NCBI GenBank assembly: GCA_052327205.1
Contig: CM126209.1
Location: 149,482,001 to 149,546,000, forward strand
Source of the DNA: Somniosus microcephalus
Taxonomy: Eukaryota
Direction: 5' to 3'
DNA: 64,000 bases
Shown: positions 2,327 through 62,850 of the stretch, in pieces
Position numbering within the stretch: the stretch's first letter is position 1
Layout: each line of letters begins with the position of its first letter
Program-made: the position numbers and the translations under genes
Notes under the pieces: generated by a model
Seen by the model: the letters and a program-made list of their open reading frames with translations, nothing else
What the model was told of the DNA's origin: nothing
The model's database searches: none

Positions 2327-2826
2327 NNNNNNNNNNNNNNNNNNNNNNNNNNNNNNNNNNNNNNNNNNNNNNNNNNNNNNNNNNNNNNNNNNNNNNNNNN
2401 NNNNNNNNNNNNNNNNNNNNNNNNNNNNNNNNNNNNNNNNNNNNNNNNNNNNNNNNNNNNNNNNNNNNNNNNNNNNNNNNNNNNNNNNNNNNNNNNNNNN
2501 NNNNNNNNNNNNNNNNNNNNNNNNNNNNNNNNNNNNNNNNNNNNNNNNNNNNNNNNNNNNNNNNNNNNNNNNNNNNNNNNNNNNNNNNNNNNNNNNNNNN
2601 NNNNNNNNNNNNNNNNNNNNNNNNNNNNNNNNNNNNNNNNNNNNNNNNNNNNNNNNNNNNNNNNNNNNNNNNNNNNNNNNNNNNNNNNNNNNNNNNNNNN
2701 NNNNNNNNNNNNNNNNNNNNNNNNNNNNNNNNNNNNNNNNNNNNNNNNNNNNNNNNNNNNNNNNNNNNNNNNNNNNNNNNNNNNNNNNNNNNNNNNNNNN
2801 NNNNNNNNNNNNNNNNNNNNNNNNNN
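2327..2826. other. Assembly gap (500 N)
   Basis: Run of N. Further gaps at 7182-7309 and 7686-7820. Confidence 0.99.
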
Positions 2827-5800: not shown

Positions 5801-6090
5801 TTGTTTACGACTCCCCAGAAGGTGCCTGCGTACACTTCGTTCACTGGGCGCGTGTACTGGTCCTTGAGGAGCTTGATAGCGTCCGCGTACGAGGTCGCGT
5901 CTTGGATGACCGAGTACACTCGGTGGTTCACTTTGGAGGTCAGGACATCCAGTTTGTCCTCGTCCGATTTGATTGCTTCGGAGGCGGTCAGGAATTTTTC
6001 GAATCACTTAAGCCAGTGAGTAAACTTGGTGGATGAGTCCACCTCCCGATGATCTAAGTCCAGGCATGCTGGTGTGAGGATCTTCTCCAT
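2827..6090 (-). pseudogene. Frameshifted gag-pol of copy B
   Basis: ATG at 6090; fragments with LFDSGS (protease), IDLKSAYHQ and FPYLDN (RT), ESDASDF and TDQRS (RNase H), IIDEYSR / HSDRGSSF / GQVERE (integrase DDE). Many single-base indels that may be sequencing errors. Confidence 0.88.
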
Positions 6091-6113
6091 TATAAAAATG
6101 TTGTTAATAAAAT

Positions 6114-6347
6114 TGATGCGCTGTCAATTACTCATAAAAGACTGAGAGTTAGAAGAGTAACTAAAGGCTTTATTAACAACAGAATGGAGATCTGCCTCGC
6201 GTGGTCGACCGGTCATGATACTAAGGGGCTAGGGAGCAGTCACCTTTATACTAGGACCTGTGGGAGGAGTCAGCCGAGGCATGTCCAGGCAGGTACACAG
6301 TGGAATACAAACAGGACAAACAGGAATACAAACAGTGGTTTACCACA
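6114..6347 (-). repeat. 5' LTR of Gypsy copy B
   Basis: Near-identical to 1252-1486. Confidence 0.9.
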
Positions 6348-9300
6348 CCTTTCCCCCTCTTCCCCTTTCCCCCATCCCCCTTTCCCCTTTCCCCCTTCCC
6401 CCTTCCCCCTCTTCCCCTTCTTCCCCCTTTCCCCCCTCCCCCCTTCTTCCTCCTTTCCCCCTTCTTCCCCTTTCCCCCCCCCCCTTCTTCCCCCTTTCCC
6501 CCTTTCCCTCTTCTTCCCCCTTCCCCCTTCCCCCTTTCCCCCTTTCCCCTTTCCCTTCCCCCTTCCCCCCTTTCCCCCCTTCTTTCCCCCTCCCTTTCCC
6601 CCTTCTTCCCCTTCCCCCTTCCCCCTTTCCCCCTTTCCCCCTCTCCCCCTCCCTTCCCACTTCCCCTTCCCCCCTTCCCCTTCCCCCTCTTCCTCCTTCC
6701 CCCTTTCCCCCTCCCCCTTCTTCCCCCTTTCCCCCTTTCCCCCTTCTTCCCCCTTTCCCCTTTCCCCCTTTCGCCCCTTCCCCCTTTCCCCCCCTTCCCC
6801 CTTTTGCCCCTTCCCCCTTTCCCCCCTTTCCCCTTCTTCCCCTTCCCCCTTCTCCCCTTCTTCCCCCCTCTTCCCCCTCTTCCCCCTTCCCCTTTCCCCC
6901 TTCCCCCTTCCCCTTCTTCCCCTTTCCCCCTTCCCTCCTTCCCCTTCTTCCCCCCTCTCCCTTCTTCCCCTTTCCCCCTTCTTCCCCCCTTTCCCCCCTT
7001 CCCCCTTCTTCACCCTTCCCCCTTACCCCTTCTTCCCCTTCTCCCCTTCTTCCCCCTTTTCCCCTCCTTCCCCCTTTCCCTTATTCCCTTCCCCCTTCTT
7101 CCCTTCCCCCCTTTCCCCCCCTTCCCCCCTTCCCCCCTTCCCCTTTCTCCCCCTTCCCCCTTTCTCCCCCCTTCCCCTTCTNNNNNNNNNNNNNNNNNNN
7201 NNNNNNNNNNNNNNNNNNNNNNNNNNNNNNNNNNNNNNNNNNNNNNNNNNNNNNNNNNNNNNNNNNNNNNNNNNNNNNNNNNNNNNNNNNNNNNNNNNNN
7301 NNNNNNNNNCCCCTATCTCACCCTTCCCCCTTCTCCCCACCCTTCCCCCTTTCTCCCCCCTCCCCTTCTTCCCCCTTCTTCCCTTCCCCCTTCTTCCCCC
7401 CCCCCCTTCCCCTTCTTCCCCTCTCCCCCCCTCCCCCTTACCCCCTCTTCCCCTTCTTCCCCTTCCCCTTTCTCCCCTTCCCACCCCTTCCCCTTTTCTC
7501 CCCCTTCCCCTTCCCCTTTCTCCCCTTCCCCCCTTCCCCCTTCTTCCCCTTCCCCTTCTTCCCCTTCCCCCTTCTTCCCCTTTCCCCCCTTCTCGCCCTT
7601 CCCCCTTTCTCCCCCTTCCCCCCTTTCTCCCCTTCCCCCTTCCCCCTTTCTCCCCCTTCCCCCTTCCTTCCCCCTTTCCCCCTTANNNNNNNNNNNNNNN
7701 NNNNNNNNNNNNNNNNNNNNNNNNNNNNNNNNNNNNNNNNNNNNNNNNNNNNNNNNNNNNNNNNNNNNNNNNNNNNNNNNNNNNNNNNNNNNNNNNNNNN
7801 NNNNNNNNNNNNNNNNNNNNTCCCCTTTCTCACCCTCCCCCCTTCCCCTTTCTCCCCCTTCCCCCTTCTCACCCTTCCCTTCCTTCTTCCCCCTTCCCCC
7901 TTCTTCCCCTTCCCCCTTCTTCCCCTTCCCCCTTCTTCCCCTTCCCCCTTCTTCCCTTTCCCCCCTTCCCCCTTCTCCCCTTTCCCCCCTTCTCCCCTTC
8001 CCCCTTTCTCCCCCTTCCCCCTTCCTCCCCCTTTCTCCCCCTTCCCCCTTTCTCCCCTTCCCCCTTTCTCCCCTTCCCCTTTCCCCCTCCCCTTTCTCCC
8101 CCTTCCCCCTTCCTTCCCCCTTTCCCCCTTTTCCCCCTTTCCCCCCTTCCCCCCTTCTTCCTCCTTTCCCCCTTCTTCCCCTTCCCCCTTCTTCCCCTTC
8201 CCCTTCTTCCCCTTCCAACTTCTTCCCCTTCCCTCTTCTTCCCCTTCCCCCTTCTTCCCCTTCCCCCTTCCCCCTTCTTCCCCTTCCCCCCTTCCTCCCC
8301 CTTCTTCCCCTTTCCCCCCGCTCTTCCCCCTTCCCCCCTTCTTCCCCCTTCCCCTTCTTCCCCCTTCCCCCTTCCCCCTTCTCCCCCCTTCCCCCTTCTT
8401 CCCCCTTCCCCCCTTCTTCCCCTTCCCCCCTTCTTCCCCCTTCCCCCCTTCTCCCCTTCTCCCCTTCCCCCTTCTTCCCCCTTCCCCCCTTCTTCCCTTT
8501 CCCCTTCTTCCCCTTCCCCCCCTTCCCCCTTCTCCCCCTTCTTCCCCCTTCCCCCCTTCTTCCCCCTTCTTCCCCTTCCCCCCTTCTCCCCTTCTTCCCC
8601 TTTCCCCTTCTTCCCCTTTCCCCCTTCCCCCCTTCTTCCCCCTTCCCCCCTTCTTCCCCCTTCTTCCCCCTTCCCCCCTTCTCCCCTTCTTCCCCTTTCC
8701 CCTTCTTCCCCTTTCCCCCTTCCCCCCTTCTTCCCCCTTCCCCCCTTCTTCCCCCTTCTTCCCCTTTCCCCCTTCCCTCCTTCCCCCCTTTCTCCCCCTT
8801 CCCCCCTTTCTCCCCCTTCCCCCTTTCTCCCTTTCTCCCCCTTCCCCCTTTCTCCCCCTTCCCCTTTCTCCCCCTTCCCCCCTTTCTCCCCCTTCCCCCC
8901 CTTCCCCCCTTTCTCCCCCTTCCCCCCTTTCTCCCCCTTCCCCCTTTCTCCCCCTTCCCCCTTTCTCCCCCCTTTCTCCCCTTCCCCCTTTCTCCCCCTT
9001 TCTCCCCTTCCCCCTTCCCCCTTTCCCCCCCTTCCCCTTTCTCCCCCCTTTCTCCCCCTCCCCCTTTCTCCCCCTCCCCCTTTCTCCCCTTCCCCCTTTT
9101 CTCCCCCTTCCCCCTTTCTCCCCCTTCTCCCCCTTCCCCCTTTTCTCCCCCTTCCCCCTTTCTCCCCCCTTTCTCCCCCTTCCCCCTTTCTCCCCCTTTC
9201 TCCCCTTCCCCCTTTCTCCCCCTTCCCCCTTTCCCCCCTTCCCCCTTTCTCCCCCTTCCCCCTTCCTTCCCCCTTCCCCCTTTCTCCCCCTTCCCCCCTT

Positions 9301-14650: not shown

Positions 14651-16234
14651 TCATAATTCTGTTATGAATTTAAGAGTTAAACTAGAGTACTTTCTGGGGT
14701 CATTATTGCAAGTTAGTTTCTGAAGCTTGGTTTGGCTTACATATTTCCCATAAGAAACATTGATTTTATTTACAAGAATGTAACAGGAATGTAACTCTCT
14801 GCAAGCCACAAAGAAAGACCTAAAAGAGACTACTGGATGAAACGTTTGCTGGGCTGCTGCTTTTAACAAGAAAAAATCTGAAGCTTGAAACAGTAAATTG
14901 TAGACCTTTCCTGTGCACTCACTGATCTCCTGCAGCTTTGCTTGTAATGTTTAGCTGTCAACCTTGCCTGCTTAAATATTCACCGTGGGAATCCAGGTAT
15001 GTAACTGCTTGTAATTTGCTTGGGTCAACTAGAGGTCAGTGAATTGATTGTACATTTCAGATTCCAAGTCTGGAAAACCCAGACTCTTCTTTTGAGTTTA
15101 CTTTAAAAAAAACAACAGCACAAATTTAAAACCAACAACACAAATTTATGAAGTCAATAGTTTTTCACATATTTACTTTGGTACTTGCAAAGGAATATGC
15201 TGGTTCGTCTGTGTGCTGTGCACACATTGGGCATGATCTCTGGGATTTGGCTGGGTTAGACAGTATTCATGGTCTTACAAATATAATGGTCTTTTTTTAG
15301 GGTTTGAGCATTGTCATTTGTGATGCACTAGGAGAGTTTTTTTTGCTTCTATCTGGCTTCCTTGGGTGGAATGTGTGGATTCCAGACTACCTGGTATTAC
15401 CAGAGTTCCAGGCGGAGTCCATAAATCGCCCTTTCTGACTGGTTTTTCAAATGTGGAGAGGATAGTGCCGAGCCACAGCGATTAAAATGCATCGTCTTGC
15501 TGATGGCAGTGGCAGTTACACTAGCCTGTATTGCAGGGGATATTCACTCTCTCTAGTGGCTAGCCTCAGCAGACATGCATATAGATCTGTAGGAATTGTG
15601 AAGCCTGTCATACTGTCTGTGGCCCTCGGGATTGTTATGAAAAACAGTGAAAGAGGATGGCGGGAACAGAAAGTGCAGCACTGTACTCCTCTGAAGCAAT
15701 CTCTCAGGAAGAGGTAGACCAGATGTGGGATGCAGTATGTTTGGTGCTGTATCATGAGCTGGCTCTTGCACATTCTGCTTTAGGTAGTAGTTGTGGGAAC
15801 CTGCTTCTGTACTAATCTCTCTTCCCCTCATAACTGTCGGCCTAGATCTCGCTTGTCTAAGGCTTTCTGTGTTGTCTTGGATAAACATGATGCATACAAA
15901 TCGCCATCCTCTATCAATTTGTCAGGGATTGGGGTATGCGGGGAGGTGGTTGCAGTTTTTCAAGTGCAACTGGGACTTGGAGGGGCGGTTTAATTTAAAG
16001 AAAAGAAACTAGATCGAAGGCAGGGCTGCGATCGGACAAAAGAAGTGAAAGAAACAAAAGAAGTAAAAGAGCTAGACAAGATGGTAATAGGCTGAGATTA
16101 GGTGTAAAGTGTACTGGCAGGGCAAGAGATAGCTGCCAGGTGTAAGAGAGAAACAAAAGGAAAGCGGGGGGGGGGGGGGGGCGCGGGAAAGGAGTGGAAA
16201 AATTACAAGAAAAAATGTGTAATAGGGGCCGAGG

Positions 16235-17395
16235 TTATGATCTGAAATTGTTGAACTCGATATTGAGTCCGAAAGGCTGCAGAGTGCCTAATCGGAAGAT
16301 GAGGTGCTGTTCCTCGAGTTTACGTTGAGCTTCCGTGGAACAATACAAGAGGCCAAGGACGGTGAGGTCCAAGTGGGAATGGAGCGGTGAATTAAAATGA
16401 CAGGCGACCGGAAGCTCGGGGTCACCCTTACGGACTGAACGGAGGTGTTCCGCATAGCGGTCACCCAATCTGGGTTTGGTCTCCCCAATGTAGAGGAGAC
16501 TGCATCGTGAGCAGCGAATACAGTATACTAGATTGCGAGAAGTACAAGTAAATCGCTGTTTCACCTGGAAGGGGTGTTTGGGGCCCTGGACAGTGGGAAG
16601 GGGGGAGGTATAGGGGCAGGTGTTACATCTCCGCTTGCACCGGAAGGTGCCAGGTGAAGGGGAAGGGCTGTTAGGGGTGATCAAGGAGTGGACTAGGGTG
16701 TCTCGGAGGGAGCGGTCCCTACGGAATGCTGAAAGGGGAGGGGAGGGGAAGATACGTTTGGTGGTGGGATCACTTTGGAGGTAGCGGAAATGCTGGAGGA
16801 TGATCCGTTGAATGTGGAGGCTGGTGGGGTGAAAGGTGAGGACAAGGGGAACTCTATTGTGGTTCCGGGAGGCAGGGGCAGGGGTGAGGGCAGAAGTGCG
16901 GGAGATAGAATGGACACGGTCGAGGGCAGTGTCAACCACGGTAGAGGGGAATCCTCGGTTGCAGAAAAAGGAAGACATGTCTGAAGCACTGGTGTGGAAG
17001 GTGGCATTGTCGGAGTAGATACGGCGGAGACGGAGAAACTGGGAGAATGGAATAGAGTCCTTACAGGAAGCGGGGTGGGAGGAAATGTAGTCCAGGTAGC
17101 TGTGGGAGTCAGTGGGCTTGTAGTGAATATTGGTCGATAACCTATCCCCAGAGATGGAGACGGAGGAGTCGAGGAAGGGAAGGGAAGCGTCAGAGATGGA
17201 CCATGTGAAGGTGGGGGAAGGGTGGAAATTGGAGGCAAAGTGAATGAAATTGTCAAGTTCGGGGCGAGAGCAGGAAATGGCACCGATACAGTCATCAATG
17301 TATTGGAAAAAGAGGTGAGGGAGGGGACCCGAGTTGGACTGGAACAAAGATTGTTCCACATAGCCCACGAAAAGGCAGGCATAGCTAGGACCCAT
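16235..17395 (-). CDS. Penelope-like RT C-terminal half plus GIY-YIG endonuclease (386 aa, 5'-truncated)
   Basis: FQYIDD, LPFLD, YKPT, CxxC linker, VYCIRCSRCSLLYIGET (GIY-YIG), LGTLQPFGLN terminus. Confidence 0.92.
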   Translation of the reverse strand: MGPSYACLFVGYVEQSLFQSNSGPLPHLFFQYIDDCIGAISCSRPELDNFIHFASNFHPSPTFTWSISDASLPFLDSSVSISGDRLSTNIHYKPTDSHSYLDYISSHPASCKDSIPFSQFLRLRRIYSDNATFHTSASDMSSFFCNRGFPSTVVDTALDRVHSISRTSALTPAPASRNHNRVPLVLTFHPTSLHIQRIILQHFRYLQSDPTTKRIFPSPPLSAFRRDRSLRDTLVHSLITPNSPSPSPGTFRCKRRCNTCPYTSPLPTVQGPKHPFQVKQRFTCTSRNLVYCIRCSRCSLLYIGETKPRLGDRYAEHLRSVRKGDPELPVACHFNSPLHSHLDLTVLGLLYCSTEAQRKLEEQHLIFRLGTLQPFGLNIEFNNFRS

Positions 17396-17512
17396 GCGGG
17401 TCTACCTAATCTCAGCCTATTACCATCTCGTCTAGCTCTTTTACTTCTTTTGTTTCTTTCACTTCTTTTGTCCGATCGCAACCCTGCCTTTGATTTAGTT
17501 TCTTTTCTTTCC

Positions 17513-17547
17513 AGTTTTGAAGAAGGGTTCGACCCGAAACGTGAACT
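17513..17547 (+). ncRNA. Degenerate minimal type I hammerhead ribozyme-like motif
   Basis: AGTT-TTGAAGA-A-GGGT/tcg/ACCC-GAAAC-GT-G-AACT; C3 and cleavage-site base are non-canonical. Confidence 0.6.
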
Positions 17548-17924
17548 CAAAATTCTCTCCACGGATGTTGCCTGACCTGCTGAGTTTTTCCAGCATTTTC
17601 TGTTGTTTTCTCAAAATAAAATCTTGTGCTGCAATGCTCTGCCACTTTGCAAAGACAGGGAACAGATCTTGTGGAGCACAGGATCAATCTCAGCCAAAGA
17701 AAATTTTAAGGAATGAGGCTTTATATCTTATCCTGGGCACATTACCAAAACTTAGATATTGGGGTCAGTGAAAATCATCTTGAGGCCATTAAGAACTAAC
17801 GGAAGTTGAAATTCCAATAAGGGCACAAAAGGTCCATAGACATGATGCAGTGTCCTGATCTACTCTCTGAAGTATAGAGGGATGCCCATGAGGGGTTGGA
17901 CAAACTCAATTAATAAGTAGAGTA

Positions 17925-20370: not shown

Positions 20371-20859
20371 TCTCACTTAAGTTATTTTGCTCCCTATTAT
20401 TATTTTAATATTATTCAAAAGAATCCCCAGCAAAAATGTGTATAGAATAACCTATTTGCAGGCATTCACTCCAGTAGGATTGAATCCTAGCCTTAGATTA
20501 TCATCAAACTTTCTCTGCAGCATTGTAATCAAACCAGCAAGATGACGAGCACTTACTGAAGAGTTTGTTTCAGACTATAGTGCACCGAGGGGGTTTGATG
20601 CAATGAGCTGAGTCAGCAGCAGAAGTGTCTGGGACCCCAAAATAATACAGCCTAGGGACACTTTGCTGTGCACTTTTCAGTCTACATAATAGACTAAAAA
20701 CAGGGAGTCTGCAGCAACCTCTGTGTGATTGTCCTAGAATGTCATTATGTTGTGGCTTTGTCAGGCAACTCATTGAGGAATTAAACAGTTTGTAATTTGA
20801 TGCTATTGTATGCAGTGCCTTGTAGATATTCCCCTTTTTTTTAATCCACACTTTTTGTT

Positions 20860-21247
20860 TGGCCCCTTTTTTCTTCCCTCCCACATGGCAGCTGTCCTTC
20901 ATTCTGCCAGCACAATTCACAATTCATCTAGAGCCACCCTTTGTTCCTTAACCTGTCCCATTACCACCTCTTCTTGCCTTGAATATCTCTTAATGTCTCT
21001 CAATGTCTCTTAATCGCTGCTGCTTTCTATCCTATCACCGACCTTCTCTTTTGTTCTTTCATCCCCTCCCCCTTTTCCCAGCCCCTAAACTTGCTTTCCA
21101 TTTCCTGCTTTTTTTTCCCAGTTCTGACGAAAGGTCTTCGATCTGAAACTCTGTGTCTCTTTCCATGGATGGCTGCCTGGCCTGCTGAGTTTTTCCAGCG
21201 TTTTCTGTTGTTGTTTTGGATTTCCAGCATCCGCAGTATTTTGCCTT
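20860..21247 (+). mobile_element. Penelope-like 3' tail fragment with hammerhead core
   Basis: AGTT-CTGACGA-A-AGGTC/ttc/GATCT-GAAAC at 21120-21149, followed by the same gctgcctg.cctgctgagtttttccagc tail as 17570-17605. Left boundary approximate. Confidence 0.7.
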
Positions 21248-21727: not shown

Positions 21728-24700
21728 TTATAAGTTCAGTCTTTGAGGAGGCTTCCTGATCCGGACTGGATAGCGCCTTTCTCGAGTATCCTGTTCTGGC
21801 GGTGGAGTCAATTCTGGCTCATTGTCATTGGTTGGTTCGTCAGCTTCCAATACCCCTGCTTCTGAGGTAGATGCAATCTGTACTTCGGGCTCATTACCAG
21901 GTGCACATGCTTGTGGTACAGGTTTGGCTTGTTCCTGTGACTCTAGAATCTGGTCAGCATGGCGTCTCACGATGCTCTCTCCAACGTCCACGGTGTACAT
22001 TAGTGGTCCCTGCTGTGTGCATATCGTGCCTGGCTGCCATTTTTCTGTTCGGTAGTCGCGGGCCAAGGCTGGTTGCCCTATCTTGAAGCTCCTGGTTGGC
22101 TTCTCATTTATGTGCTGGAACTGCTTATCCTCAACAATCTCGTCTTATGTTTGGTTTGAGCAAATCCAAGCGACATCTTAGTCTCCAGTTAAAAAACAGT
22201 ACGGCTGGAGTTTGTTTGGTTACTGCATGTGTTGCATTCCGGTAAGCAAACAGGAAGTTATCCACCTTGTGTTGCAGTGGTATGTCGTCATTATACATTG
22301 CCTTTATGGCCTTTTTAAAGGTCTGAACAAACCTCTCAGCCAATCCATTTGTGGCTGGATGATATGGGGCAGATGTGTAATGTTTCACCCCATTATTCTT
22401 CAGGAACCTCCGGAAATCCTCAGACACAAACTGTGGGCCATTGTCGGAACAGATCTGTTCTGGCAACCCAATCCTGGCGAAGATGGTTCTTAGGACTGCA
22501 ATAGTTTTCTCCGTGGTGGTGGAGGACATTTTAATGGCCTCTGGCCATTTCGAATGGGCGTCCACAGCGATTAGAAACATTGAGTCCATAAATGGACCAG
22601 CGAAATCAATGTGTACCCGTTGCCATGGAGATGTGGGCCACTCCCATGGATGTCACGGGGCGTGTGGTGGAGCGTTTTGGACCTTCTGGCATCCTGTGCA
22701 TCTCTTGGTCATATCCTCAATTTCTTTATCGATTCCCGGCCACCACACAAACGCCCTGGCTAGGCTCTTCATTTTTACCCCTCCCAGATGACCCTCGTGA
22801 AGCTCATTGAGCACTCTATCTCTCAACTTGGGTGGAATTACCACTCGGGATCCACACATCAAGGTTCCCCGGCACACTGACAGCTGTTCCCTCCTTGGCG
22901 AGAATGCTGGCAACAGTGAGTCGGCATATGCTGGCCATCCCTTCACCGTCAAATCATAGACCCGAGAGAGTGTCTGGTCATTTCGGGTTTCCTTCTCAAT
23001 ACTTGCGTTTGTAACAGGCAAACATTCGACTATAGTCGCATGGAATATCTCCACAGGGTACTCTATGCCATACTGATGTGCCCCTAGAAAAAGTGACCAT
23101 CTTTGCAGCCGTTGCGCCGTCATCACCGGAACGCCCTTCTTTGGGTTAAAAATTGAGACCAGGGGTTGATGATCAGTCAGTAGGGTGAATTTCTGCCCGT
23201 GCAGATAGTGATTGAACTTCTTCAACCCCCACACCAGGCTGTCAACCTGGGCGTAGTTACGCTCGGCTGAGGTTAGCGAGCGCGATGCAAAGGCTATTGG
23301 CCTCTCTGAACCGTCACGGAATTTGTGTGACAGCACCGCTCCAATGCCGTAAGGTGACGCATCACATGCCAACCGAATCGGTAGTGTTGGGTTGTAGTGG
23401 GCCAATACTTCTTTTGAAGTGATTTGGCATTTACATTCCTGAAAGGCATGCTTACACTCATCACTCCATTTCCATGTTACACCAGTTTGAAGGAGGGCGT
23501 TCAGTGGGTGCAGAATTGTAGATAAATTCGGCAAGAACTTATGGTAGTAGTTCACCAACCCGAGGAACGACCTCAGTTGCGACACATTTTCTGGTGCTGG
23601 AGCCTTGACTACAGCCTCAATCTTGTCCGGCGACTTATGCAACCCTTCCTCATCAATCATGTGGCCACAATACGAGATTTGTCTCCTGAAGAACTCGCAT
23701 TTGGGGCGGTTGGCTCATAGCCCATATTCCTGCAATCTCGTGAGCACCTGATCCAGGTTCGCAAGGTGTTCATTGTCATTTTCGCCCATAACCAGGATGT
23801 TGTCCAAATAACACTGGGCCCCCGGGATCCCTTGCAGGACTTGTTCCATTGCCCTCTGCCACATAGCCGGGGCCGATGCTACCCCAAATACCAGTCGATT
23901 GTACTAGTAAAGGCCTTTGTGAGTGTTTATCGTGAGGTATTTCCTAGATGCTTCTTCCACCTCCATTTGTAGATACGCTTGAGCCAGGTCAATCTTTGTA
24001 AAACGTTTCCCTCCAGATAGCGAGGCGAAAATATCTTCTATCCGCAGAAGCGGATACTGTACTGTGTGCAGGACTGGGTTCACAGTCACCTTGAAGTCCC
24101 CACAGATGCGAACCTTCCTTGGCTCCCCAGGCGTGCTGCTCAATGCTTTCTTCATTACAGGAACGACGGGTGTCGCCCACTCGCTCCAGTCCACCTTAGA
24201 CGGCACCCCCGAACGCTCCAGACTCTCCAGTTCAGCTTCCACAGCTGGGCGTATCACGTATGGCACCGGTCTGGCCTTGAAAAATTTTGGGGTTGCGTTA
24301 TCCTCAATCTTTATGGTTGCCTTTACTCCTTTTAGAGTCCCAAGTCCTTGTTGGGACACCTCTTCCGCGTCAGATAGAATTTGTGACAGATGTCCAGGTG
24401 CGACGTCATCATCTTTTTTGTCAGTCAGTTAGTGCCAGAATGGAATGCCAATCCAATTGTAGTCTTCGGATCCATTCACATCCCAATAATGGTGGTCCTC
24501 CATCTCTTAGTATATACATGTATAGTTTCTGTGTTTCCTTTCCGTTATATTCAACTGGCACCCTTATTTTTCCTCTGGGGTAGACCTTTTGCCCCGTGTA
24601 TGTCTTCAATACAATGGACGTGTCCTTTAAGGGTATGTGTGAGAAAAGCCGCTCATAGTCTCGTCGATTCATGACAGTTAGGGCTGATCCTGTGTCCAAT

Positions 24701-29151: not shown

Positions 29152-32100
29152 TGATGCGCTATCAACAATACCAAAGACTACGAGATGGACTTAAATGAAG
29201 TAGGCTTTTATTGACTAAGAACTAGAGCATGCCTCTGCTAGTGAATCCATCCTAAGAGCTCTCGGGGGAAGGGTGGTGAGTCACCTTTATACCCGGGCTT
29301 AGGGGTGGAGCCAGGGGCTGAGACATGCCTGGACTTGTACAGGGTTAACAGTGGTTTACCACACAGGCATGTACAGGTTAACAGTGGTTTACCACATTCA
29401 CCCCTCGTTTAAAAAAAGAGTCCGGCGGGGTGAAGTGTTTCAAAAGGTCGTATACGAAAGTCTCTCCGGGGGTCTTGTCTGCCGTAATGATCTTCGTGGT
29501 GCCGGTTGCGGAGGTTCTTTGCCCGCGGCCGCTTCTCGCGTGGGACGGAGCACTGGCGTGTCGTCCTCTCGGGGTAGGGATGGCACCGGCATGTCGTCAG
29601 TTCGTGGTAGACACCCCGGTGGTGCATCGTGGGTAGTGGTGGTGGGTGGAGGTAGTGGATGGTGATCGATGGTGTTTCGGGTGGTACCTGAGGGTGCGAG
29701 GTCTCGAATTGAGACTGTGTCCTCCCGCCCGTCAGGATACGCCACGTAGACATACTGTGGGTTGGCGTGGAGGCGGTGAACCTTTTCGACCAGGGGGTCC
29801 ATCTTATGGCTCCTCACGTGTTTCCTGAGCAGGATGGGTCCCGGAGACGTCAGCCATGGCGGTAGTGATGTCCCCGAGGTGGATTTCCTGGGGAAGACGA
29901 ACATCTTCTCGTGAGGGGTGGCATTTGTGGCAGTACAGAGCAGTGATCGTATGGAATGGAGCGCATCGGGGAGGACATTTTGCCAGCGGAAGATTGGGAG
30001 GCCCTTGGATTTTAGGGCGAGCATGGCGGTCTTCCACACCGTTGCGTTCTCCCTCTCTACCTGTCCGTTACCCCGGGGGTTGTAGCTGGTAGTCCTGCTC
30101 GTGGCTATGCCCTTCTCGAGCAGGTACTGGCGCAGCTCGTCGCTCATGAATGACGAGCCCCTGTCGCTGTGGATGTAATTGGGGAAGCCAAATATGGCGA
30201 ACAGGTCGTGGAGGCACCTGATGACTGTGGCGCTGGTCATGTCCGGGCAGGGGATGGCGAAGGGGAAACGGGAGTACTCGTCAATAATATTGAGGAAGTA
30301 CGTGTTGCGGTCAGAGGAGGGAAGGGGCCCCTTGAAATCGACGCTGAGACGTTCGAAGGCTTTAATCAGGTGTGCCCTGTCTGGCCTATAAAAATGCGGT
30401 TTGCATTCGGCGCAGACCTGGCAGTTCCTGGTCATGGTCCTGACCTCCTCGATGGAGTAAGGCAGGTTGCGAGCTTTAATAAAGTGGAAGAACCTGGTGA
30501 CCCCTGGGTGGCAGAGATCATTGTGGAGGGTCCGTAGCCTATCGACTTGTGCGTTGGCACATGTCCCACAGGATAGGGCGTCTGGGGGCTCATTAAGTTT
30601 CCCGGGCCGGTATAAGATATCGTAGTTGTAGGTGGATAACTCGATCCTCCACCGCAATATCTTATCATTTTTGATTTTCCCCCTTTGTCTGTTGTTAAAC
30701 ATGAATGCTACTGACCGTTGGTCAGTGAGCAGGGTGAAATGTTTACCGGCCAGGTAATGTCTCCAGTGCCGTACAGCCTCCACTATCGCCTGGGCCTCCT
30801 TCTCGACTGAGGAGTGTCGAATTTCGGGGCCCTGGAGGGTCCGTGAAAAGAAGGCCACGGGTCTCCCCGCCTGGTTAAGGGTTGCGGCTAGGGCGAAGTC
30901 GGATGCATCGCTCTCCACTTGGAAAGGGATGGACTCATCCACTGCGTGCATTGTGGCCTTCGCAATGTCCTCTTTTATGAGGGTGAAGGCCGCACGGGCC
31001 TCTGCCGTCAGGGGGAAGGAGGTTGACTTGATGAGGGGCCGGGCTTTGTCCGCATAGTTTGGCACCCACTGGGCGTAGTAAGAGAAGAATCCTAGGCATC
31101 TCTTCAGGGCTTTTAGGCAGTGGGGGGGGGGGTAGTTCCAGGAGGGGGCACATTCGGTCGGGGTCGGGGCCGATGACTCCGTTTTCCACCACGCAGCCAA
31201 GAACAGCGAGGCGTGCGGTGCGGAACATACATTTTTCTCTGTTGTATGTCAGATTCAGCCGTTGGGCCGTACGGAGGAATTTTTCTAGGTTGGCGTCGTG
31301 GTCCTGCCGGTCATGGCCGCAGATGGTGACGTTGTCTAGATAGGGGAAGGTGGCCTGCAGCGCGTTCTGGTCAACCATCCGGTCCATCTCCCTTTGGAAG
31401 ACCGAGACCCCGTTGGTGACGCCGAAGGGGGCTCGGAGGAAGTGGTAGAGGCGACCGTCAGCCTCGAAGGCCGTGTACTGGCGGTCCTCAGGCCTGATGG
31501 GGAGCTGATGGTATGCCGACTTCAGATCAATCGTCGAGAATACCCGGTATTATGCTATCTGGTTGACCATGTCAGATATGCGGGGAAGTGGGTATGCGTC
31601 TAATTGCGTGGATCGATTGATCGTCTGGCTGTAATCAATAACCAGGCGCTGTTTTTCGCCGGTCTTTACTACCACCACTTGGGCTCGCCATGGGCTGGTG
31701 CTGCCCTCGATAATCCCTTCCCTCAGGAGTCTTTGTACTTCTGATTTAATAAAGCTCCTATCCCCGGCACTGTACCGCCTGCTTTTAGTAGCAATTGGCT
31801 TGCAGTCTTTGGCGAGGTTAGCGAACAACGGGGGGGGTTTGACCTTCAAGGTGGACAGGCTGCATACTTTGTGCGGCGCCATGTTTAAATTCTGCTGGCT
31901 GCAGACTGTAAGTGGGGGCAGGGGCCCGCCATATGCCATCGTGACGCTCTCCAGATGGCACTGGAAGTCTAATCCTAGCAGTACGGGAGCGCAGAGCTGT
32001 GGCAGGATGAGGAATTTAAACTCTCTGTACTCCACACCGTTCACTGTCAGAGTCGCTACACAGTAGCCGCCGACGTCCGCCGTATGGGCTTTGAGGCCAT

Positions 32101-33456
32101 AAAGACCTGGTGGCGTGTGCGCATAACCGATAGGGAGTAGCGTCGCACCGTGTCGGGGTGGATGAAGCTCTCCGTGCTTCCGCAGTCGAAAAGGCAATTT
32201 GTGGCATGGCCATTTACCTTTACGTTCATCATGGACCTGGCTAGTTGATGGGGCCTAGATTGGTCCAGGGTGATGGAGGCCATCGTCGAGGTCGGTGGGT
32301 CGCTGTAGTATTCGCCCGCACCGAGGGCCTGGTCCCGAGATGGTGTCCAAGATGGCGGCTCCCCCTCAGCTGGTGGGGTCCAAAATGGCGGCCTGTACGG
32401 TTCACACACGGCGCTGCTGGAATTGGGGGTCGATTTCACCTTGCACACTCTCGCGTAGTGGCCTTTCTTGCCGCATTTGGAGCAGGTCGCGTCCTTTGCT
32501 GGGCATTGCTGTCTGGGGTGCTTGGCCTGGCCGCAGAAGTAGCATTTCTGGCCTCTGGTCATTGCAGCTGTAGTTGGGCTACTGGCGGCTTGTGGCCTTA
32601 CCGGGTCCCAAGATGGCTGCTCCCGTGGCATCCACGTGGCCATCCGGTCAGGGGGGTAGGCGTCCATGTTCTGGAGGGCCACGTCTAACGAGTTAGCGAG
32701 GGCCACCGTCTTCTGCAGGTCGAGCCCCCTCTGTTCCAGCAGCCTCTGCCGAGTATAGTTGGACCTGATGCCGGCTACGTAGGCGTCTCGGATCAGGTCT
32801 TCCGTGCATTCCTTGGCCGTCACCGCTTTGCAATTACAGTCCCGGCCGAGGACTCTCAGTGTCAGTAAATATTCAGCGCCCGATTCCCCGGGGCGCTGTT
32901 TTCGGGTAGCCAGGAGGTGTCTGGCGTAGACCTCGTTAACGGGCCTCACGTATTGTTCCTTTAGCGTCGCGATGGCGGCCGCGTAAGTAGTGCCGTCTCA
33001 GATGATCGAGTAGACTCGGTGGCTCACCTGTGAGTTCAAGACAAGCCGTTTCGCGTCATCTGTAGTGACAGTAGTGCTGGAGGCCTCCAGGAAGGCTTCG
33101 AAACAGCTCAGCCAGTGTTCAAAGTTATTGGCTGCATCTGCTGCTTGAGGATCCAGGTCTAAACGTTCCGGCTTCAAGATTTGCTCCATGTTGAAAATTA
33201 GTCAATAAAATTGATGCGCTATCAACAATACCAAAGACTACGAGATGGACTTAAATGAAGTAGGCTTTTATTGACTAAGAACTAGAGCATGCCTCTGCTA
33301 GTGAATCCATCCTAAGAGCTCTCGGGGGAAGGGTGGTGAGTCACCTTTATACCCGGGCTTAGGGGTGGAGCCAGGGGCTGAGACATGCCTGGACTTGTAC
33401 AGGGTTAACAGTGGTTTACCACACAGGCATGTACAGGTTAACGGTGGTTTACCACA
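29152..33456 (-). mobile_element. Full-length Ty3/Gypsy copy C
   Basis: 245-bp LTRs at 29152-29396 and 33212-33456 with 1 mismatch; 5-bp TSD CTTTC; PPT GAGGGGTGAA abutting the 3' LTR. Confidence 0.97.
29440..33189 (-). pseudogene. gag-pol of copy C with premature stops and frameshifts
   Basis: MEQILKPERLDLDP start; CCHC knuckles; LFDCGS; YLDN; RNase H; HHCC + DDE integrase; stops at 32998 and 31550. Confidence 0.92.
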
Positions 33457-42861: not shown

Positions 42862-43959
42862 ATGGAGAAGATCCTCACACTAGCATGCCTGGACCTGGAC
42901 AGTCGGGAAGCGGACGCTTCCACCAAGTTTGCTCACTGGCTCATGTGCTTCGAGACATTCCTGACTGCCTCCACTGCGGTCGTAATGGATGCGGACAAAC
43001 TGTCTGTCCTGATCTCCAAGGTGAACCACCGAGTGTACTCAGTCATCCGGGACGCGACCTCGTACACAGCCGCCCTCCAGCTCCTCAAGACCCAGTACAC
43101 GCACCCTGTGAACGAAGTATACGCCAGGCACCTTCTGGGGAGTCGCAAGCAACAACCTGGGGAATCGACTGAGGAATACCTCCAAGCACTGTCCGTGCTT
43201 GGCCGGGCCTGTGGGTGTAAGGTGGTAACGCCCGCTAAGTACACGGAGGAACTGATCCGGGATGCCTTCGTAGCGGGCCACAGGTCCAACTACACCCGAC
43301 AGCGACTGCTGGAGCAGAGTGACCTCACCCTCGACAAAGCCTCCGAAATCGCACCAACGCTGGACGCAGCCTACCGGGGCATGGAAGCCTACTCCTCTGC
43401 ACCGTGGACGCCGCGGGGAACGACAACCTGGGACACGGTAGGACAGCCCCATAGCACCGTGCCACCCCAGCCACAGCCCAACAACGGCCCAACTACCGCA
43501 GCAGTGTCCCAAAGCCAGACAGCAGTATCCCGAGGCCAGAAATGCTACTTCTGTGGCCAGGCCAAACACCCCAGAGCGCGCTGCCCGGCGAAGAATGCGA
43601 CCTGCTCGGGCTGCGGGAAAAAGGGACACTACGCCAGCGTCTGCAAGGCCAAAGCCACCCCGAACGCCAGCAGTGCCGCGTGTGGGCCATGTGAGCCGCC
43701 ATCTTGGGCCCCCAACAGCGCCGCGTGTGGGCCGTGCGGGCTGCCATCTTGGGCCTCCCCAGCCATGTGCGAACCACCGCAGCAGCAGCCATCTTGGACG
43801 ACTCCAGCCACATGGGAATCATGGACGCCGCCATCTTGGACACCAGCCGGGACGCAGCAGACCGCCAACCCCCCCCCCCCCCATCTGATACCCGCAGCGA
43901 CACACCGACCCCTACGCTGGCCTCTGTTACGCTGGACCAAACGAGACCGCACCAACTAG
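42862..43959 (+). CDS. gag: Gag of copy D
   Basis: 365-aa ORF with CYFCGQAKHPRARC and CSGCGKKGHYASVC knuckles; leaves the native frame at the C14 run 43869-43882. Confidence 0.88.
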   Translation: MEKILTLACLDLDSREADASTKFAHWLMCFETFLTASTAVVMDADKLSVLISKVNHRVYSVIRDATSYTAALQLLKTQYTHPVNEVYARHLLGSRKQQPGESTEEYLQALSVLGRACGCKVVTPAKYTEELIRDAFVAGHRSNYTRQRLLEQSDLTLDKASEIAPTLDAAYRGMEAYSSAPWTPRGTTTWDTVGQPHSTVPPQPQPNNGPTTAAVSQSQTAVSRGQKCYFCGQAKHPRARCPAKNATCSGCGKKGHYASVCKAKATPNASSAACGPCEPPSWAPNSAACGPCGLPSWASPAMCEPPQQQPSWTTPATWESWTPPSWTPAGTQQTANPPPPHLIPAATHRPLRWPLLRWTKRDRTN

Positions 43960-46769
43960 CTCGGTCCAAAATGGACGTTAAGGTAAACGGCCATGCAATA
44001 AACTGCCTTTTTGACTCCGGGAGCACAGAGAGCTTCATCCACCCCGACACGGTGCGGCGTTGCTCTCTCCCAGTCCTGCCTACGCACCAGCGGATTTCTA
44101 TGGCCTCCGAGTCCCAGTCAGCGGACATTGGCGGCTACTGCGTGGTGACACTAGTAGTAGACGGGACTGTGTTCAATAATATTAAATTCCTGGTCCTGCC
44201 CGACCTCTGCGCTGCCGTCCTACTGGGGTTGGATTTCCAGTGCCACCTCAAAAGCGTTACGCTGGCGTACGGTGGCCCCCTCCCCCCACTCACAGTCCGC
44301 AGCCAGCAGCCTCCAAATTGCCCGCCGCGCACCAGATGCAACCTCTCCACACTCAGATTCCCACCCCCACCACTGTTTGCTAACCTCACCCCCGACTGTA
44401 AGCCCATCGCCACAAAGAGCAGGCGATACAGTGCCGAGGACAGGGTTTTCATCAAAACCGAAGTGGAGCGGCTCCTGAAGGAGGGGATTATTGAGGGCAG
44501 CTCCAGCCCCTGGCGAGCCCAGGTTGTGGTTGTTAAGACCGGTGAGAAACAACGCCTGGTCATCGACTACAGCCAAACAATAAACCGCTACACCCTGCTG
44601 GACGCCTACCCACTCCCCCGCATAGCTGACATGGTCAACCAGATCGCGCAGTACCGCGTCTTTTCGACCATTGACCTGAAATCAGCGTACCACCAGCTCC
44701 CCATCCGCCCTAAAGACCGCCAGTATACTGCTTTTGAGGCAAACGGCTGCCTCTATCACTTCCTTAGGGTTCCCTTCGGCGTTACCAACGGGGTCTCCAT
44801 CTTCCAAAGGGAGATGGACCGGATGGTCGATCAAAACGCGCTGCAGGCCACTTTCCCTTACCTAGACAATGTGACCATCTGCCGCCATGACTTGCAGGAC
44901 CATGACGCAAACCTCGAGAAATTCCTCCGCACCGCCCAACTCCTGAACCTGACATGTAACAAGGAGAAGTGCATATTCCGCACAGACCGCCTCGCCATCC
45001 TTGGCTGTGTTGTGGAACACGGGGTCATCGGTCCCGACCCGGACCGGATGCGTCCCCTTATGGAACTCCCACTGCCCCACTGCCTAAAAGCTCTGAAGAG
45101 GTGCCTAGGGTTTTTTTCCTACTACGCTCAGTGGGTCCCCTACTATGCAGACAAAGCCCGTCCGCTGATCAAAACCACCTCTTTTCCCCTGATGGCAGAG
45201 GCCCGCTTGGCCTTCCACCGTATCAAGGAGGACATTGCCAAAGCCACCATGCACGCAGTGGACAAATCCATCCCCTTCCAGGTGGAAAGCGATGCGTCCG
45301 ACTTCGCTCTGGCCGCCACCCTTAATCAGGCGGGGAGACCTGTGGCATTCTTCTCACGAACCCTCCAGGGCCCGGAGACCAGACACTCCGCGGTCGAGGA
45401 GGCCCAGGCTATTGTGGAGGCTGTGCGTCATTGGAGGCACTACCTGGCCGGAAAACGATTTACCCTGCTCACTGACCAGCGTTCAGTTGCTTTTATGTTC
45501 AACAACAAGCAGAGGGGCAAAATCAAAAATGACAAGATCTTGAGGTGGAGAATCGAACTTTCCACCTACAATTACGAGATCTTGTACCGGCCTGGGAAGC
45601 TCAATGAACCCCCAGATGCCCTATCGCGTGGCACCTGCGCCAGCACGCAGATTGATAGGCTGAGGGCCCTCCACAATGACCTCTGCCACCCAGGGGTCAC
45701 CAGGTTCTTCCACTTCATCAAGGCCCGCAACCTGCCTTACTCCATCGAGGAGGTCAGGACCATGACCAAGAACTGCCAAGTCTGCGCTGAGTGCAAACCG
45801 CACTTTTATAGACCAGACAGAGCCCACCTGATAAAAGTCGAACGCCTGAGCGTCGATTTTAAAGGGCCTCTCCCCTCCTCCGACCGCAATGTGTACTTCC
45901 TCAACATCATTGATGAGTACTCCCGTTTCCCGTTCGCTATCCCCTGCCTGGACATGACCAGTGCCACGGTCATTAAATCTCTGAACAGCCTCTTCACCCT
46001 GTTCGGTTTCCCCAGCTATATCCATAGCGACCGGGGCTCATCGTTTATGAGCGACGAACTCTGCCAGTACCTGCTCGCTAGGGGTATAGCCACAAGCAGG
46101 ACCACCAGTTACAACCCCCGGGGGAACGGACAGATGGAAAGAGAGAATGCAACAGTTTGGAAGGCCGCCCTACTAGCCTTAAAGTCTAGGGGCCTTCCGA
46201 CCTCCCGCTGGCAGGAGGTGCTCCCCGATGCGCTCCACTCTATTCAGTCACTGCTCTGCACTGCCACCAATGCCACCCCTCATGAGAAAATGTTTGTCTT
46301 CCCAAGGAAGTCCACATCGGGGACATTGTTACCGCCATGGCTGACGTCCCCAGGGCCGGTACTACTGAGAAGACACGTGAGGGCCAATAAAATGGACCCC
46401 CTGGTCGAGAGGGTCGACCTCCTCCATGCCAACCCCCAGTACGCTTACATTGCGTACCCGGACGGGCGGGAGGACACAGTCTCCATACGAGACCTCGCAC
46501 CCTCGGGGACCGCTGTAACCCACTACCCATTACCACCCCCCCCCCCCCCCCCCACGACCCGATATCCAACCCCAGCAGCCGGCTCGCCTTGGACCGTCAC
46601 CCACGAGGACTACACTCCAGGGCCCCAGCCTACACGGGACGGGACGCGACGCCGGAAGCTCCACCACCCCTGCCGTCGCCACGTCGATCACAGCGGCAGA
46701 CAAGCCCTCCGGAGAGACTCCAATACACAAACTTTTAAATACACTTCACCCCGCCGGACTCATTTTTAA
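43704..46769 (+). CDS. pol: Pol of copy D (PR-RT-RNaseH-IN)
   Basis: 1021-aa open frame with LFDSGS, YLDN, DASD..E..TD..D RNase H, HHCC and D,D(35)E integrase; the listed start Met is probably not real. Confidence 0.93.
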   Translation: MGPQQRRVWAVRAAILGLPSHVRTTAAAAILDDSSHMGIMDAAILDTSRDAADRQPPPPPSDTRSDTPTPTLASVTLDQTRPHQLARSKMDVKVNGHAINCLFDSGSTESFIHPDTVRRCSLPVLPTHQRISMASESQSADIGGYCVVTLVVDGTVFNNIKFLVLPDLCAAVLLGLDFQCHLKSVTLAYGGPLPPLTVRSQQPPNCPPRTRCNLSTLRFPPPPLFANLTPDCKPIATKSRRYSAEDRVFIKTEVERLLKEGIIEGSSSPWRAQVVVVKTGEKQRLVIDYSQTINRYTLLDAYPLPRIADMVNQIAQYRVFSTIDLKSAYHQLPIRPKDRQYTAFEANGCLYHFLRVPFGVTNGVSIFQREMDRMVDQNALQATFPYLDNVTICRHDLQDHDANLEKFLRTAQLLNLTCNKEKCIFRTDRLAILGCVVEHGVIGPDPDRMRPLMELPLPHCLKALKRCLGFFSYYAQWVPYYADKARPLIKTTSFPLMAEARLAFHRIKEDIAKATMHAVDKSIPFQVESDASDFALAATLNQAGRPVAFFSRTLQGPETRHSAVEEAQAIVEAVRHWRHYLAGKRFTLLTDQRSVAFMFNNKQRGKIKNDKILRWRIELSTYNYEILYRPGKLNEPPDALSRGTCASTQIDRLRALHNDLCHPGVTRFFHFIKARNLPYSIEEVRTMTKNCQVCAECKPHFYRPDRAHLIKVERLSVDFKGPLPSSDRNVYFLNIIDEYSRFPFAIPCLDMTSATVIKSLNSLFTLFGFPSYIHSDRGSSFMSDELCQYLLARGIATSRTTSYNPRGNGQMERENATVWKAALLALKSRGLPTSRWQEVLPDALHSIQSLLCTATNATPHEKMFVFPRKSTSGTLLPPWLTSPGPVLLRRHVRANKMDPLVERVDLLHANPQYAYIAYPDGREDTVSIRDLAPSGTAVTHYPLPPPPPPPTTRYPTPAAGSPWTVTHEDYTPGPQPTRDGTRRRKLHHPCRRHVDHSGRQALRRDSNTQTFKYTSPRRTHF

Positions 46770-60496: not shown

Positions 60497-62850
60497 AACA
60501 TAAGAACATAAGAAATAGGAGCAGGAATAGGTCATTTGGCCCCTTGAGCCTGCTCTGCCATTCAATAAGATCATGGCTGATCTTCTACCTCATCTCCACT
60601 TTGCTGCACTATCCCTTGATTCACTTAACATTCAAAAATCTATCGATCTCTATCTTGAATATACTCTACGACTGAGCCTCCACAGCTCTATGGGGTAGAG
60701 AATTCCAGAGATTCACCATCCTCTGAGTGAAGAAATTTCTCCTTCTCTCAGTCCTAAATGGCTGACCCCTTATTCTGAAACTGTGACCTCTGGTTCTAGA
60801 CTCCCCAGGCAGGGCAAACATCCTCCCTGCATCTACCCTGTCGAGCCCTGTAAGAATTTTGTATGTTTCAATGAGATCACCTCTCATTCTTCTAAATTCA
60901 CTGTTTACTACACTTCCAAGTTCCGTGGCATCTGCAAACTTTGAATTCTGCCCTGTATCCTCAAGTCCAAGTCATTAATGTATACCAAAAAAAGCAGTGG
61001 TCCTAGTACTGAACCTTGGGGAACTCCAGTGCACATCTCCCTCCAGTCCAAAAAACAGCCATTCACCACAATTGTTTTCTGTCCCGTAACCAATTTTGTA
61101 TCCAAGCTGCTACTGTCCTTTTTATCCCATGGGCTTCAATTTTGCTAACAAGCCTAATATGTGGTTCTTTTATCAAATGCCTTTTGAAAGTCCATATACA
61201 CATCAACTGCACTGTCCTTATCCACCCTCTGTTACCTCATCAAAAAACTCAATCAAGTTGGCCAAACACAAGTTGCCCTTAACAAACCTGTGCTGGCTCT
61301 CCTTCTTTTAGTCCATGCTTGTCCAAGTGGTTGTTAACTTTCTCCTGGATTATTGTTTCTAAAAGCTTCCCCACCACTGACTGACTTTAAACTACCAGTT
61401 CTGACGAAAGGTCATCGATCTGAAACATTAACTCTGTTTCTCTCTTCACAGATGCTGCCTGACCTGCTGAGTTTCTTCAGCATTTTCTGTTTTTATTACT
61501 GACTTTAAACTGACTCGCCTGTAATTGCCAGGTTTATCCTTCTCCCCTTTTTTGAACCAAGGTGTAATATTTGCAATCCTCCAGTCCTTTGGCACCACAC
61601 CTGTCATAGAGTCATAGAGTCATAGAGTAATACAGCACAGATAGAGGCCCTTCGGCCCATCGTGTCCATGCCGGCCATCAAGCCCTGTCTAATCTAATCC
61701 CATATTCCAGCATTTGGCCCGTAGCCTTGTATGCTATGGCATTTCAAATGCTCATCCAAATGCTTCTTAAATGTTGTGAGGGTTTCTGCCTCCACAACCC
61801 TTTCAGGCAGTGAGTTCCAGACTCCAACCACCCTCTGGGTGGAAAAAGTTCTTTCTCAAATCCCCTCTAAACCTCCCTCCCTTTACCTTGAATCTATGCC
61901 CCCTAGTTATTGACCCCTCTACTAAGGGGAAAAGCTCCTCAGCATCCATCCTATCTATGCCCCTCACAATTTTGTACACCTCAATCATGTCCCCCCTCAG
62001 CCTCCTCTGCTCCAAGGAAAACAAACCCAATCTGCCCAGTCTCTCTTCATAGCTGAAGCGCTCCAGCCCTGGTAACATCCTGGTGAACCTCCTCTGCACC
62101 CTCTCTAACGCGATCACATCTTTCCTGTAGTGTGGCGACCAGAACTGCACACAGTATTCCAGCTGTGGCCTAACCAGTGTTTTATACAGCTCCATCATAA
62201 CCTCCTTGCTCTTATATTCTATGCCTCGGCTAATGAAGGCAAGTATCCCATATGCCTTTTTTACCACCTTATCCACCTGTTCCGCCGCCTTCAGGGATCT
62301 GTGTACCTGCACACCCAGATCCCTCTGACCCTCCGTCTTGCCTAGGGTCTTACCATTCATTGTGTATTCCCTTGCCTTGTTAGACCCCCCCAAAGTGCAT
62401 CACCTCGCACTTTTCCGGGTTAAATTCCATTTGCCACTGTTCCGCCCATCTGACCAACCAACCTGTATCTAAGAAGGATTGGAAAATTGTGGCCAGCACC
62501 TCCATAATTTCTACCCTTATTTCCCTCAGCAACCTAGGATGCATCCCATATGGACTGGGTGACTTACCTATTTTAAGTACTGCCAGCCTTTCTAGTACCA
62601 CCTCTATCTATTTTTATCTCATCCAGTATCTCTGCAAACTCCTCATTTACCATAGCTTTGGCAAAGCCCTCTTCTTGGTAATCACAGATACAAAAGTTCT
62701 CCTTTTAGTACCTCCAGCCATGCCTTCTGTCTCCACCAATAGATCTCCATCTTGGTCCCTAATTGCATCCCCCCCCCCCCCCCCCGCCACCACCACCACC
62801 CCCGCTCTTCTGACAACCTTTTTACTGTTAATATGCCTGTAGAAGACATT
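60497..62850 (-). mobile_element. Stack of three nested CR1 fragments
   Basis: Tails (AACATAAG)n at 60497 and (CATAGAGT)n near 61605; older RT pieces at about 60900-61600 and 62460-62850; ORF 61803-62393. Confidence 0.82.
61394..61497 (+). mobile_element. 104-bp hammerhead-bearing Penelope-derived insertion
   Basis: 14-bp direct repeat ACTGACTTTAAACT at 61380-61393 and 61498-61511; hammerhead-like core at 61397-61433. Confidence 0.8.

Follow-up and report, generated by a model that had tools for sequence, protein, structure and literature searches.

A 104-nt hammerhead-bearing insert in Somniosus microcephalus as a probable truncated copy of a Penelope-like element, begun at a family-wide stop at the hammerhead edge

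The window analysed here, a stretch of 64,000 nucleotides of contig CM126209.1 of Somniosus microcephalus (assembly GCA_052327205.1), carries a 104-nt insert at 61394-61497, set between two identical plus-strand copies of the 14-mer ACTGACTTTAAACT at 61380-61393 and 61498-61511. Its host is a minus-strand, CR1-like LINE fragment (60498-61603, limits approximate) with ~90% identity to its paralogues, one of which (L154) encodes a reverse transcriptase (Pfam RVT_1, E 1e-25); the label CR1 is our presumption. Among the 14 aligned host paralogues, 12 cross the site with a single 14-mer and no insert, and the other two (L157 and L160) end or diverge at the insertion site. The repeat is therefore a true target-site duplication, which bears out the view, first reached from the letters of the window (hereafter the sequence-only reading), that this is a discrete insert in an old LINE flanked by a 14-bp duplication. 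Since both copies of the 14-mer share a substitution absent from the paralogues, the insertion is younger than the LINE copy that received it. An extra A at 61394 (plus strand), between the left duplication and the element, is likely non-templated, the parent element having T there. Relative to the LINE paralogues, four extra bases (ACTG, 61376-61379) also precede the left duplication.

The insert opens with ACC and continues with AGTT (61397-61400), CTGACGA (61401-61407), an additional A, AGGTC/GATCT, GAAAC, AT-T and AACT (61430-61433), the very order proposed in the sequence-only reading. On the plus strand, the 5' end of the copy (61395-61400) coincides with the upstream edge of a stop window common to the family (see below) and includes the 5' strand of stem I at 61397-61400; a minimal type-I hammerhead made up of CUGACGA, the bulged A, stem II, GAAA and helix III occupies 61401-61429, as judged from sequence and pair counts; the 3' strand of stem I, AACT, lies at 61430-61433 (97% of cells paired, with a closing pair of U-A, U-G or C-G); and the rest of the pLTR extends over 61434-61497, up to the short 3' end, the first of two putative reverse transcriptase (RT) start sites, without the 35-nt tail. 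Cleavage is predicted after 61429. The A at 61427 is a G in 68/79 long and 37/39 short copies of the family, so that the suggested decay of AT from GT at a CpG is sustained, and helix III, a palindromic AACGTT in the family, reads AACATT in the insert. GAAACGT is kept in 80/119 family copies, and in predicted foldings the palindrome forms a self-duplex of -4.1 kcal/mol in the parent and none in the insert. A palindromic helix III that permits dimers is thus present in the family and broken in the insert, and the hammerhead of this copy is for that reason probably inactive. The GUU triplet, thought atypical in the sequence-only reading, proved to be the usual one: with a core pattern that allowed GTA, GTC or GTT, the matches listed in this genome had GTT in 93/100 cases and GTC in 7/100.

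The identification as a minimal hammerhead of the Penelope-like element (PLE) type, also proposed beforehand, is supported by the CUGANGA and GAAA core in the proper order together with stems I and II, and by pairing across subfamilies. Across several subfamilies, 25 distinct rows have 97.9% of their cells paired, against 9-52% in slid controls, and two pairs have two-sided changes; the closing pair of stem I varies between U-A, U-G and C-G, and pair 10.1-11.1 between G-C, A-U and G-U, being A10.1-U11.1 in the subfamily of the insert. Because the rows are related to one another and the search pattern fixed the stem II base in 19/28 of them, though nothing in stem I, this pairing gives modest support to a hammerhead structure. 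An Rfam scan of the 64-kb window returned no hammerhead at E up to 5, and folding of the whole insert was no better than that of shuffles (z -0.77); the call therefore rests on the core sequence and the pairing across subfamilies.

The insert is identical at 100/103 positions to the last 103 nt of its parent, the differences being a stem II G-U wobble (61419), the CpG decay (61427) and a change at 61477. Two parent loci carry the anchor sequence twice, 3253 and 3226 nt apart, flanking an ORF remnant, and the parent is ~3.2 kb long. The tail motif has 1129 exact matches in the 6.4-Gb genome, and a shorter motif 5345. Matches of the parent to RT (PF00078, E 4e-5) and to the GIY-YIG endonuclease (PF01541, E 3e-4) are below the Pfam cut-offs and come from different, partly broken copies; nevertheless, an RT followed by GIY-YIG with CCHH residues and an upstream C-X4-C-xx-C linker (CKRRRCNTC), the arrangement of EN+ PLEs with their CX2-5CxxC linker, can be recognized, and the family also has pLTRs, an optional 30-40-bp tail, inverted 5' copies and target duplications. 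The linker and CCHH residues fit the Neptune/Nematis type as defined in the accessible part of PMC8557442; given the CX2-5CxxC linker, a Poseidon label was dropped. From the 5' pLTR to where the ORF begins, two parent loci (L072 and L112) present four pyrimidine-tract plus AG motifs in a row, the last of them immediately followed by the ATG with which, past an in-frame stop, the ORF frame opens; an intron or 5' UTR may therefore contain the hammerhead and tail.

Other elements in the window include two relatives of the insert. A Penelope-like copy at 15997-17607 combines a minus-strand ORF remnant, 90% like the parent locus L072, with an inverted, plus-strand pLTR of a sister subfamily whose hammerhead lies at 17511-17550; its segment 16222-17401 is 90% identical to the parent, and 17505-17607 is 83% identical. 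The insert, which was said to share its tail with this Penelope, matches it at 17511-17607 with 80% identity over 100 columns; the copy belongs to a sister subfamily. Its minus-strand arm ends just short of the hammerhead, and 15997-17607 yielded no duplication. The second is a longer 5'-truncated relative on the plus strand (20838-21242), with the tail, a 13-bp duplication and 82% identity to L072, in which a 6-nt deletion removes the cleavage triplet. Apart from these, LTR-retroelement pol frames with protease, RT, RNase H and integrase (Pfam) occur at 43695-46769 and 22653-23714, and copies related to them at 1-7100 and 29373-33225.

To locate the 5' ends of family members, positions were counted upstream of the anchor CACAG (window 61447) in 190 distinct tail anchors, the first matches in genome order, with anchors near a locus edge skipped; three duplicates of one insertion inside another repeat were left out, giving 187. 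Anchoring on the tail makes this sample independent of the 5' end, while an earlier genome search (40 of 1766 candidates scored), which favours full-length matches, was not used for the end histogram. With samples drawn mostly from two contigs (C1 and C2) and exact-match anchors favouring young copies, 52/187 copies start at positions 44-52, an interval of 9 nt at the hammerhead's 5' border, where 5.0 are expected from the flanking rate (Poisson p ~3e-34). The insert itself ends at position 52, and its 5' boundary is accordingly non-random, in line with the sequence-only reading. The edge is sharp upstream, with a single end at 53-56, and trails downstream, with 17 ends at 35-43; 98/187 copies pass it and go on into the parent pLTR and ORF, about 65% of the copies that reach the edge reading through. 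Peaks of long ends at 148, 175, 185 and 339 are probably alignment breaks at indels. At the junctions of edge copies the flanking sequences bear no relation to one another, one passenger event excepted; microhomology of 1-4 nt or a few additional bases are often present there, and 21/33 non-inverted edge copies have an exact 8-14-bp duplication. The passenger is an edge-type stub with a 13-bp duplication that was multiplied inside another repeat (L044, L069, L104 and L196; also L006 and L015). At three further loci (L131, L170 and L229) the apparent 3' end of another repeat lies inside the hammerhead, twice at the same place.

The same edge recurs beyond this sample. Sister subfamilies with G10.1-C11.1 and a different upstream sequence stop there in 11/30 cases, and another sister sample, read by eye, in only 3 or 4 of 30. 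Of 69 copies extending beyond the tail, 23 get as far as the stop window and 10 stop in it, with none at 53-74; 18 of the 69, the near-full-length ones, run at least 640 nt into the ORF, and of these 12 reach the stop window and 3 stop (p 0.012). In run contigs of another organism (~2,100 million letters), 290 loose ends fall at the position equal to 49. Its presence in sister subfamilies, in ORF-bearing copies and in another organism makes the edge stop a property of the reaction of the autonomous element.

The distribution of 3' ends has two modes, ~+49 and ~+86 relative to the anchor, ~37 nt apart. All 14 head-to-head pairs have one short (untailed) and one tailed arm (e.g., L034 and L221); in 10/14 the longer arm ends at 41-54, and in 4/14 the untailed arm reaches clearly further 5'. 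Fold-back of a single cDNA could not give these four pairs and was rejected as the origin of all 14; the inverted pairs are likely two cDNAs primed on the two target strands. Of the 69 copies past the tail, 34 rows (33 events, by eye) reach only +127 to +291 and then join a truncated 3' pLTR, 6 of the 33 joining at the hammerhead edge against ~1.3 expected. The left junctions cluster in this way even though they would be visible out to ~+990, a pattern that speaks for template jumping while reverse transcription was under way rather than for deletions afterwards. Head-to-tail dimers with a period of ~230-460 nt have this build (L258, L297, L288, L256, L296, L305 and L148), the upstream half running 40-200 nt past the tail and then into a truncated pLTR, some with two hammerheads and a duplication. 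L258 and L297 are two-hammerhead dimers with 13-bp duplications whose halves both start at the edge; in L258, L288 and L297, the three dimers in which the first-made half stopped at the edge and the second-made half came as far, the latter stopped again, whereas L256 and L296 each record one pass that went through the edge and one that ended at it.

Given a discrete size class with target duplications, amounting to at least 1,500 units if ~28% of the 5345 exact anchor matches are of this kind (an estimate), it could be asked whether the insert is, as the sequence-only reading had it, a distinct and very small non-autonomous unit, a SINE or retrozyme that descends from a master copy of its own and is moved in trans. 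In favour of this there is a T>C change at position 1, found in 5/39 short and 0/79 long copies (p 0.003 uncorrected, one of 46 tests); a subfamily artefact was dismissed here, the five copies having unrelated flanks. After correction, however, none of 46 positions holds a base that tells the 39 short from the 79 long copies, and the two groups have much the same mean mismatch (1.6 and 1.7). The 5' ends of the edge copies are scattered over 9 nt (44-52), with microhomology, rather than fixed; both 3' end types occur among them (30 short, 22 tailed), as they do among long copies (39 short, 41 tailed), and the same edge is found in several subfamilies and in ORF-bearing copies. Nor is there a pol III A or B box by simple pattern, or a non-element head that could hold a promoter, 103/104 nt aligning to the PLE. 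The insert is a single unit rather than a tandem with at least two complete hammerheads, and no head-to-tail repeat of the unit below 250 nt was seen among 285 distinct anchors. With 98/187 relatives passing the edge, the notion of an independent unit is already largely refuted and we hold it to be improbable; what survives of the original proposal is placement by PLE enzymes. Random 5'-truncated debris ending near the motif by chance is more improbable still. Although 135/187 copies do end elsewhere, from 5 nt to >3 kb, random truncation, which the sequence-only reading had itself named as the adverse outcome, is at odds with a tenfold excess in 9 nt that was repeated in further samples, and at the level of the family it is refuted.

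We consider it very likely that the insert derives from an autonomous Neptune-type PLE as a 5'-truncated copy, begun at the family-wide stop at the hammerhead edge, with run-off of uncut RNA as the likely cause; it is short because about a third of the family's copies stop at the front edge of the hammerhead. In this scheme the GIY-YIG endonuclease would have cut the LINE target with a 14-nt stagger, of which the observed duplication is the trace, and RT would have begun at an internal start site, the first of two, as suggested by the bimodal 3' ends and by the mechanism in the accessible part of PMC11167929. The copy runs 103 nt straight through the cleavage site, as its sequence attests, so the template must have been uncut. 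Synthesis ended at C52, presumably for one of the causes weighed below, and the end would have been joined with one extra A; three later substitutions, one of them in the helix III palindrome, would then have left a copy predicted not to form an active dimer. A 5' end made by hammerhead self-cleavage of the template, for which the apparent structural constraint on the motif might speak, is scarcely credible: such a copy would start at 61430, and a boundary ~33-35 nt upstream of the cleavage site was not made by cleavage. At the predicted site (positions 14-21) there are 5 ends against 6.3 expected, and 2 of those 5 (L059 and L107) share an upstream flank motif, as if another repeat had inserted later.

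As for the cause of the stop, the parent has a pyrimidine tract plus CAG at the edge, and CCAGTTC with TTAAAAA ~30 nt upstream. We take the latter pair to resemble an initiator with a TATA-like box, and the same stretch could presumably also be read as a splice acceptor. Run-off at the RNA 5' end, whether at the initiator-like CCAGTTC or at a processed end, has in our judgement about an even chance of being right; it agrees with the sharpness of the edge, with the second stop seen in three dimers and with small duplications by re-priming at some junctions (L054 and L172), and an Inr-like pLTR sequence is noted in the accessible part of PMC3846280 (for an internal promoter, see PMC2377424). Against it, no cap-derived G was seen at the junctions, and with about 65% read-through, longer templates or seamless strand transfer are also needed. 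A spliced template, with a short exon joined at CCAG, was rejected, since edge copies have no shared or parent-derived sequence directly upstream. Among the joints listed in contigs of three runs guessed to be RNA and of one larger run there was no GT-AG joint, a result without bearing on splicing or start sites. A stall or protein block, with RT brought to a halt where the folded hammerhead domain has its base, by a protein sitting on the pyrimidine tract or splice acceptor just upstream, or through fold-back of the cDNA end, is a serious possibility that we rate at somewhat under an even chance. The predicted lowest-energy fold of the parent RNA closes a long interrupted hairpin at C51-G11, and a cDNA ending at 52 is predicted to fold at -4.5 kcal/mol; the stop fractions are alike (25-43%) in four of five samples, and their likeness between short and near-full-length copies has in a stall an equally simple explanation; the dimers L256 and L296 fit, and a D. 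virilis intron ends at helix I according to the portion of PMC4209133 available. Yet the hairpin is already unwound once RT reaches its 5' edge, the edge is sharp (a single end at 53-56), and the three dimers L258, L288 and L297 stopped at it twice, as one short RNA would give. Some other cause is unlikely. A more specific form of run-off is put forward only tentatively: element RNA would start at the front edge of the hammerhead, and a strong-stop cDNA like that of retroviruses, primed 100-140 nt downstream, would be either pasted as a stub such as this insert or carried by a jump to the 3' part of the RNA (+127 to +291) for a second round of copying. If so, such jumps would yield target-duplicated two-hammerhead dimers with a 230-340-nt period (L258, L297 and L288), and retrozymes would arise in this way from Penelope elements in a single step.

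The insert is real and probably a dead stub of a known kind of element, and in itself ordinary; its family, however, provides a precise, testable clue to PLE reverse transcription. The function of hammerheads in PLEs is called unclear in the accessible review literature, and thousands of genomic copies record the reaction, those of this family showing a template copied uncut, both target strands primed from different start sites, and one sharp stop. A base-precise prediction for the PLE reaction and a candidate route from PLE to retrozyme follow from them. They also carry a warning for annotation, in that a discrete size class with target duplications is insufficient for a SINE call.

Much of what surrounds the stop is already in print, namely truncated PLEs in the form of lone minimal hammerheads, as well as tails, inverted copies and solo pLTRs; in the open main texts searched, no report of a stop at the hammerhead edge was found. 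The comparisons that follow refer to the accessible portions of the sources cited. Minimal type-I hammerheads in metazoan PLE pLTRs were described by Cervera and de la Pena (2014, PMC4209133), mostly as single motifs "probably related to truncated PLEs", with some opposite-strand pairs 100-700 bp apart. The motif studied here is like theirs in its short helix I, the bulged base between 9 and 10.1 and the palindromic 15.2-16.2, and unlike theirs (G-C) in the A10.1-U11.1 pair of the insert's subfamily; those portions give neither a distribution of 5' ends nor a stop at the edge. With the Neptune/Nematis EN+ PLEs (Craig et al. 2021, PMC8557442; Arkhipova et al. 2013, PMC3846280) the parent family shares an RT with C-terminal GIY-YIG and CX2-5CxxC linker, heavy 5' truncation, partial tandems, an inverted 5' copy, a 30-40-bp tail at one end only, solo pLTRs and target duplications, whereas the edge stop and the dimers in which the upstream half extends 40-200 nt beyond the tail are absent from those accounts as far as they are accessible. 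Poseidon PAc in vitro (Frangieh et al. 2024, PMC11167929) likewise has two internal RT start sites bounding the tail, cuts and extends both target strands, takes uncut RNA as its main substrate and gives no reads that end at the cleavage site; unlike the parent of the insert, it belongs to a different clade without the CX2-5CxxC linker, and its genomic 5' ends are not profiled in the text available. Animal non-LTR retrozymes (PMC7229834; bioRxiv 10.64898/2026.07.22.740005), for their part, are similarly non-coding, hammerhead-bearing, pLTR-related and dependent on PLE enzymes; in the portions consulted they are tandem, with at least two complete hammerheads and circular RNAs where tested, whereas the insert is one unit of 104 nt whose motif is damaged and which has no separate lineage.
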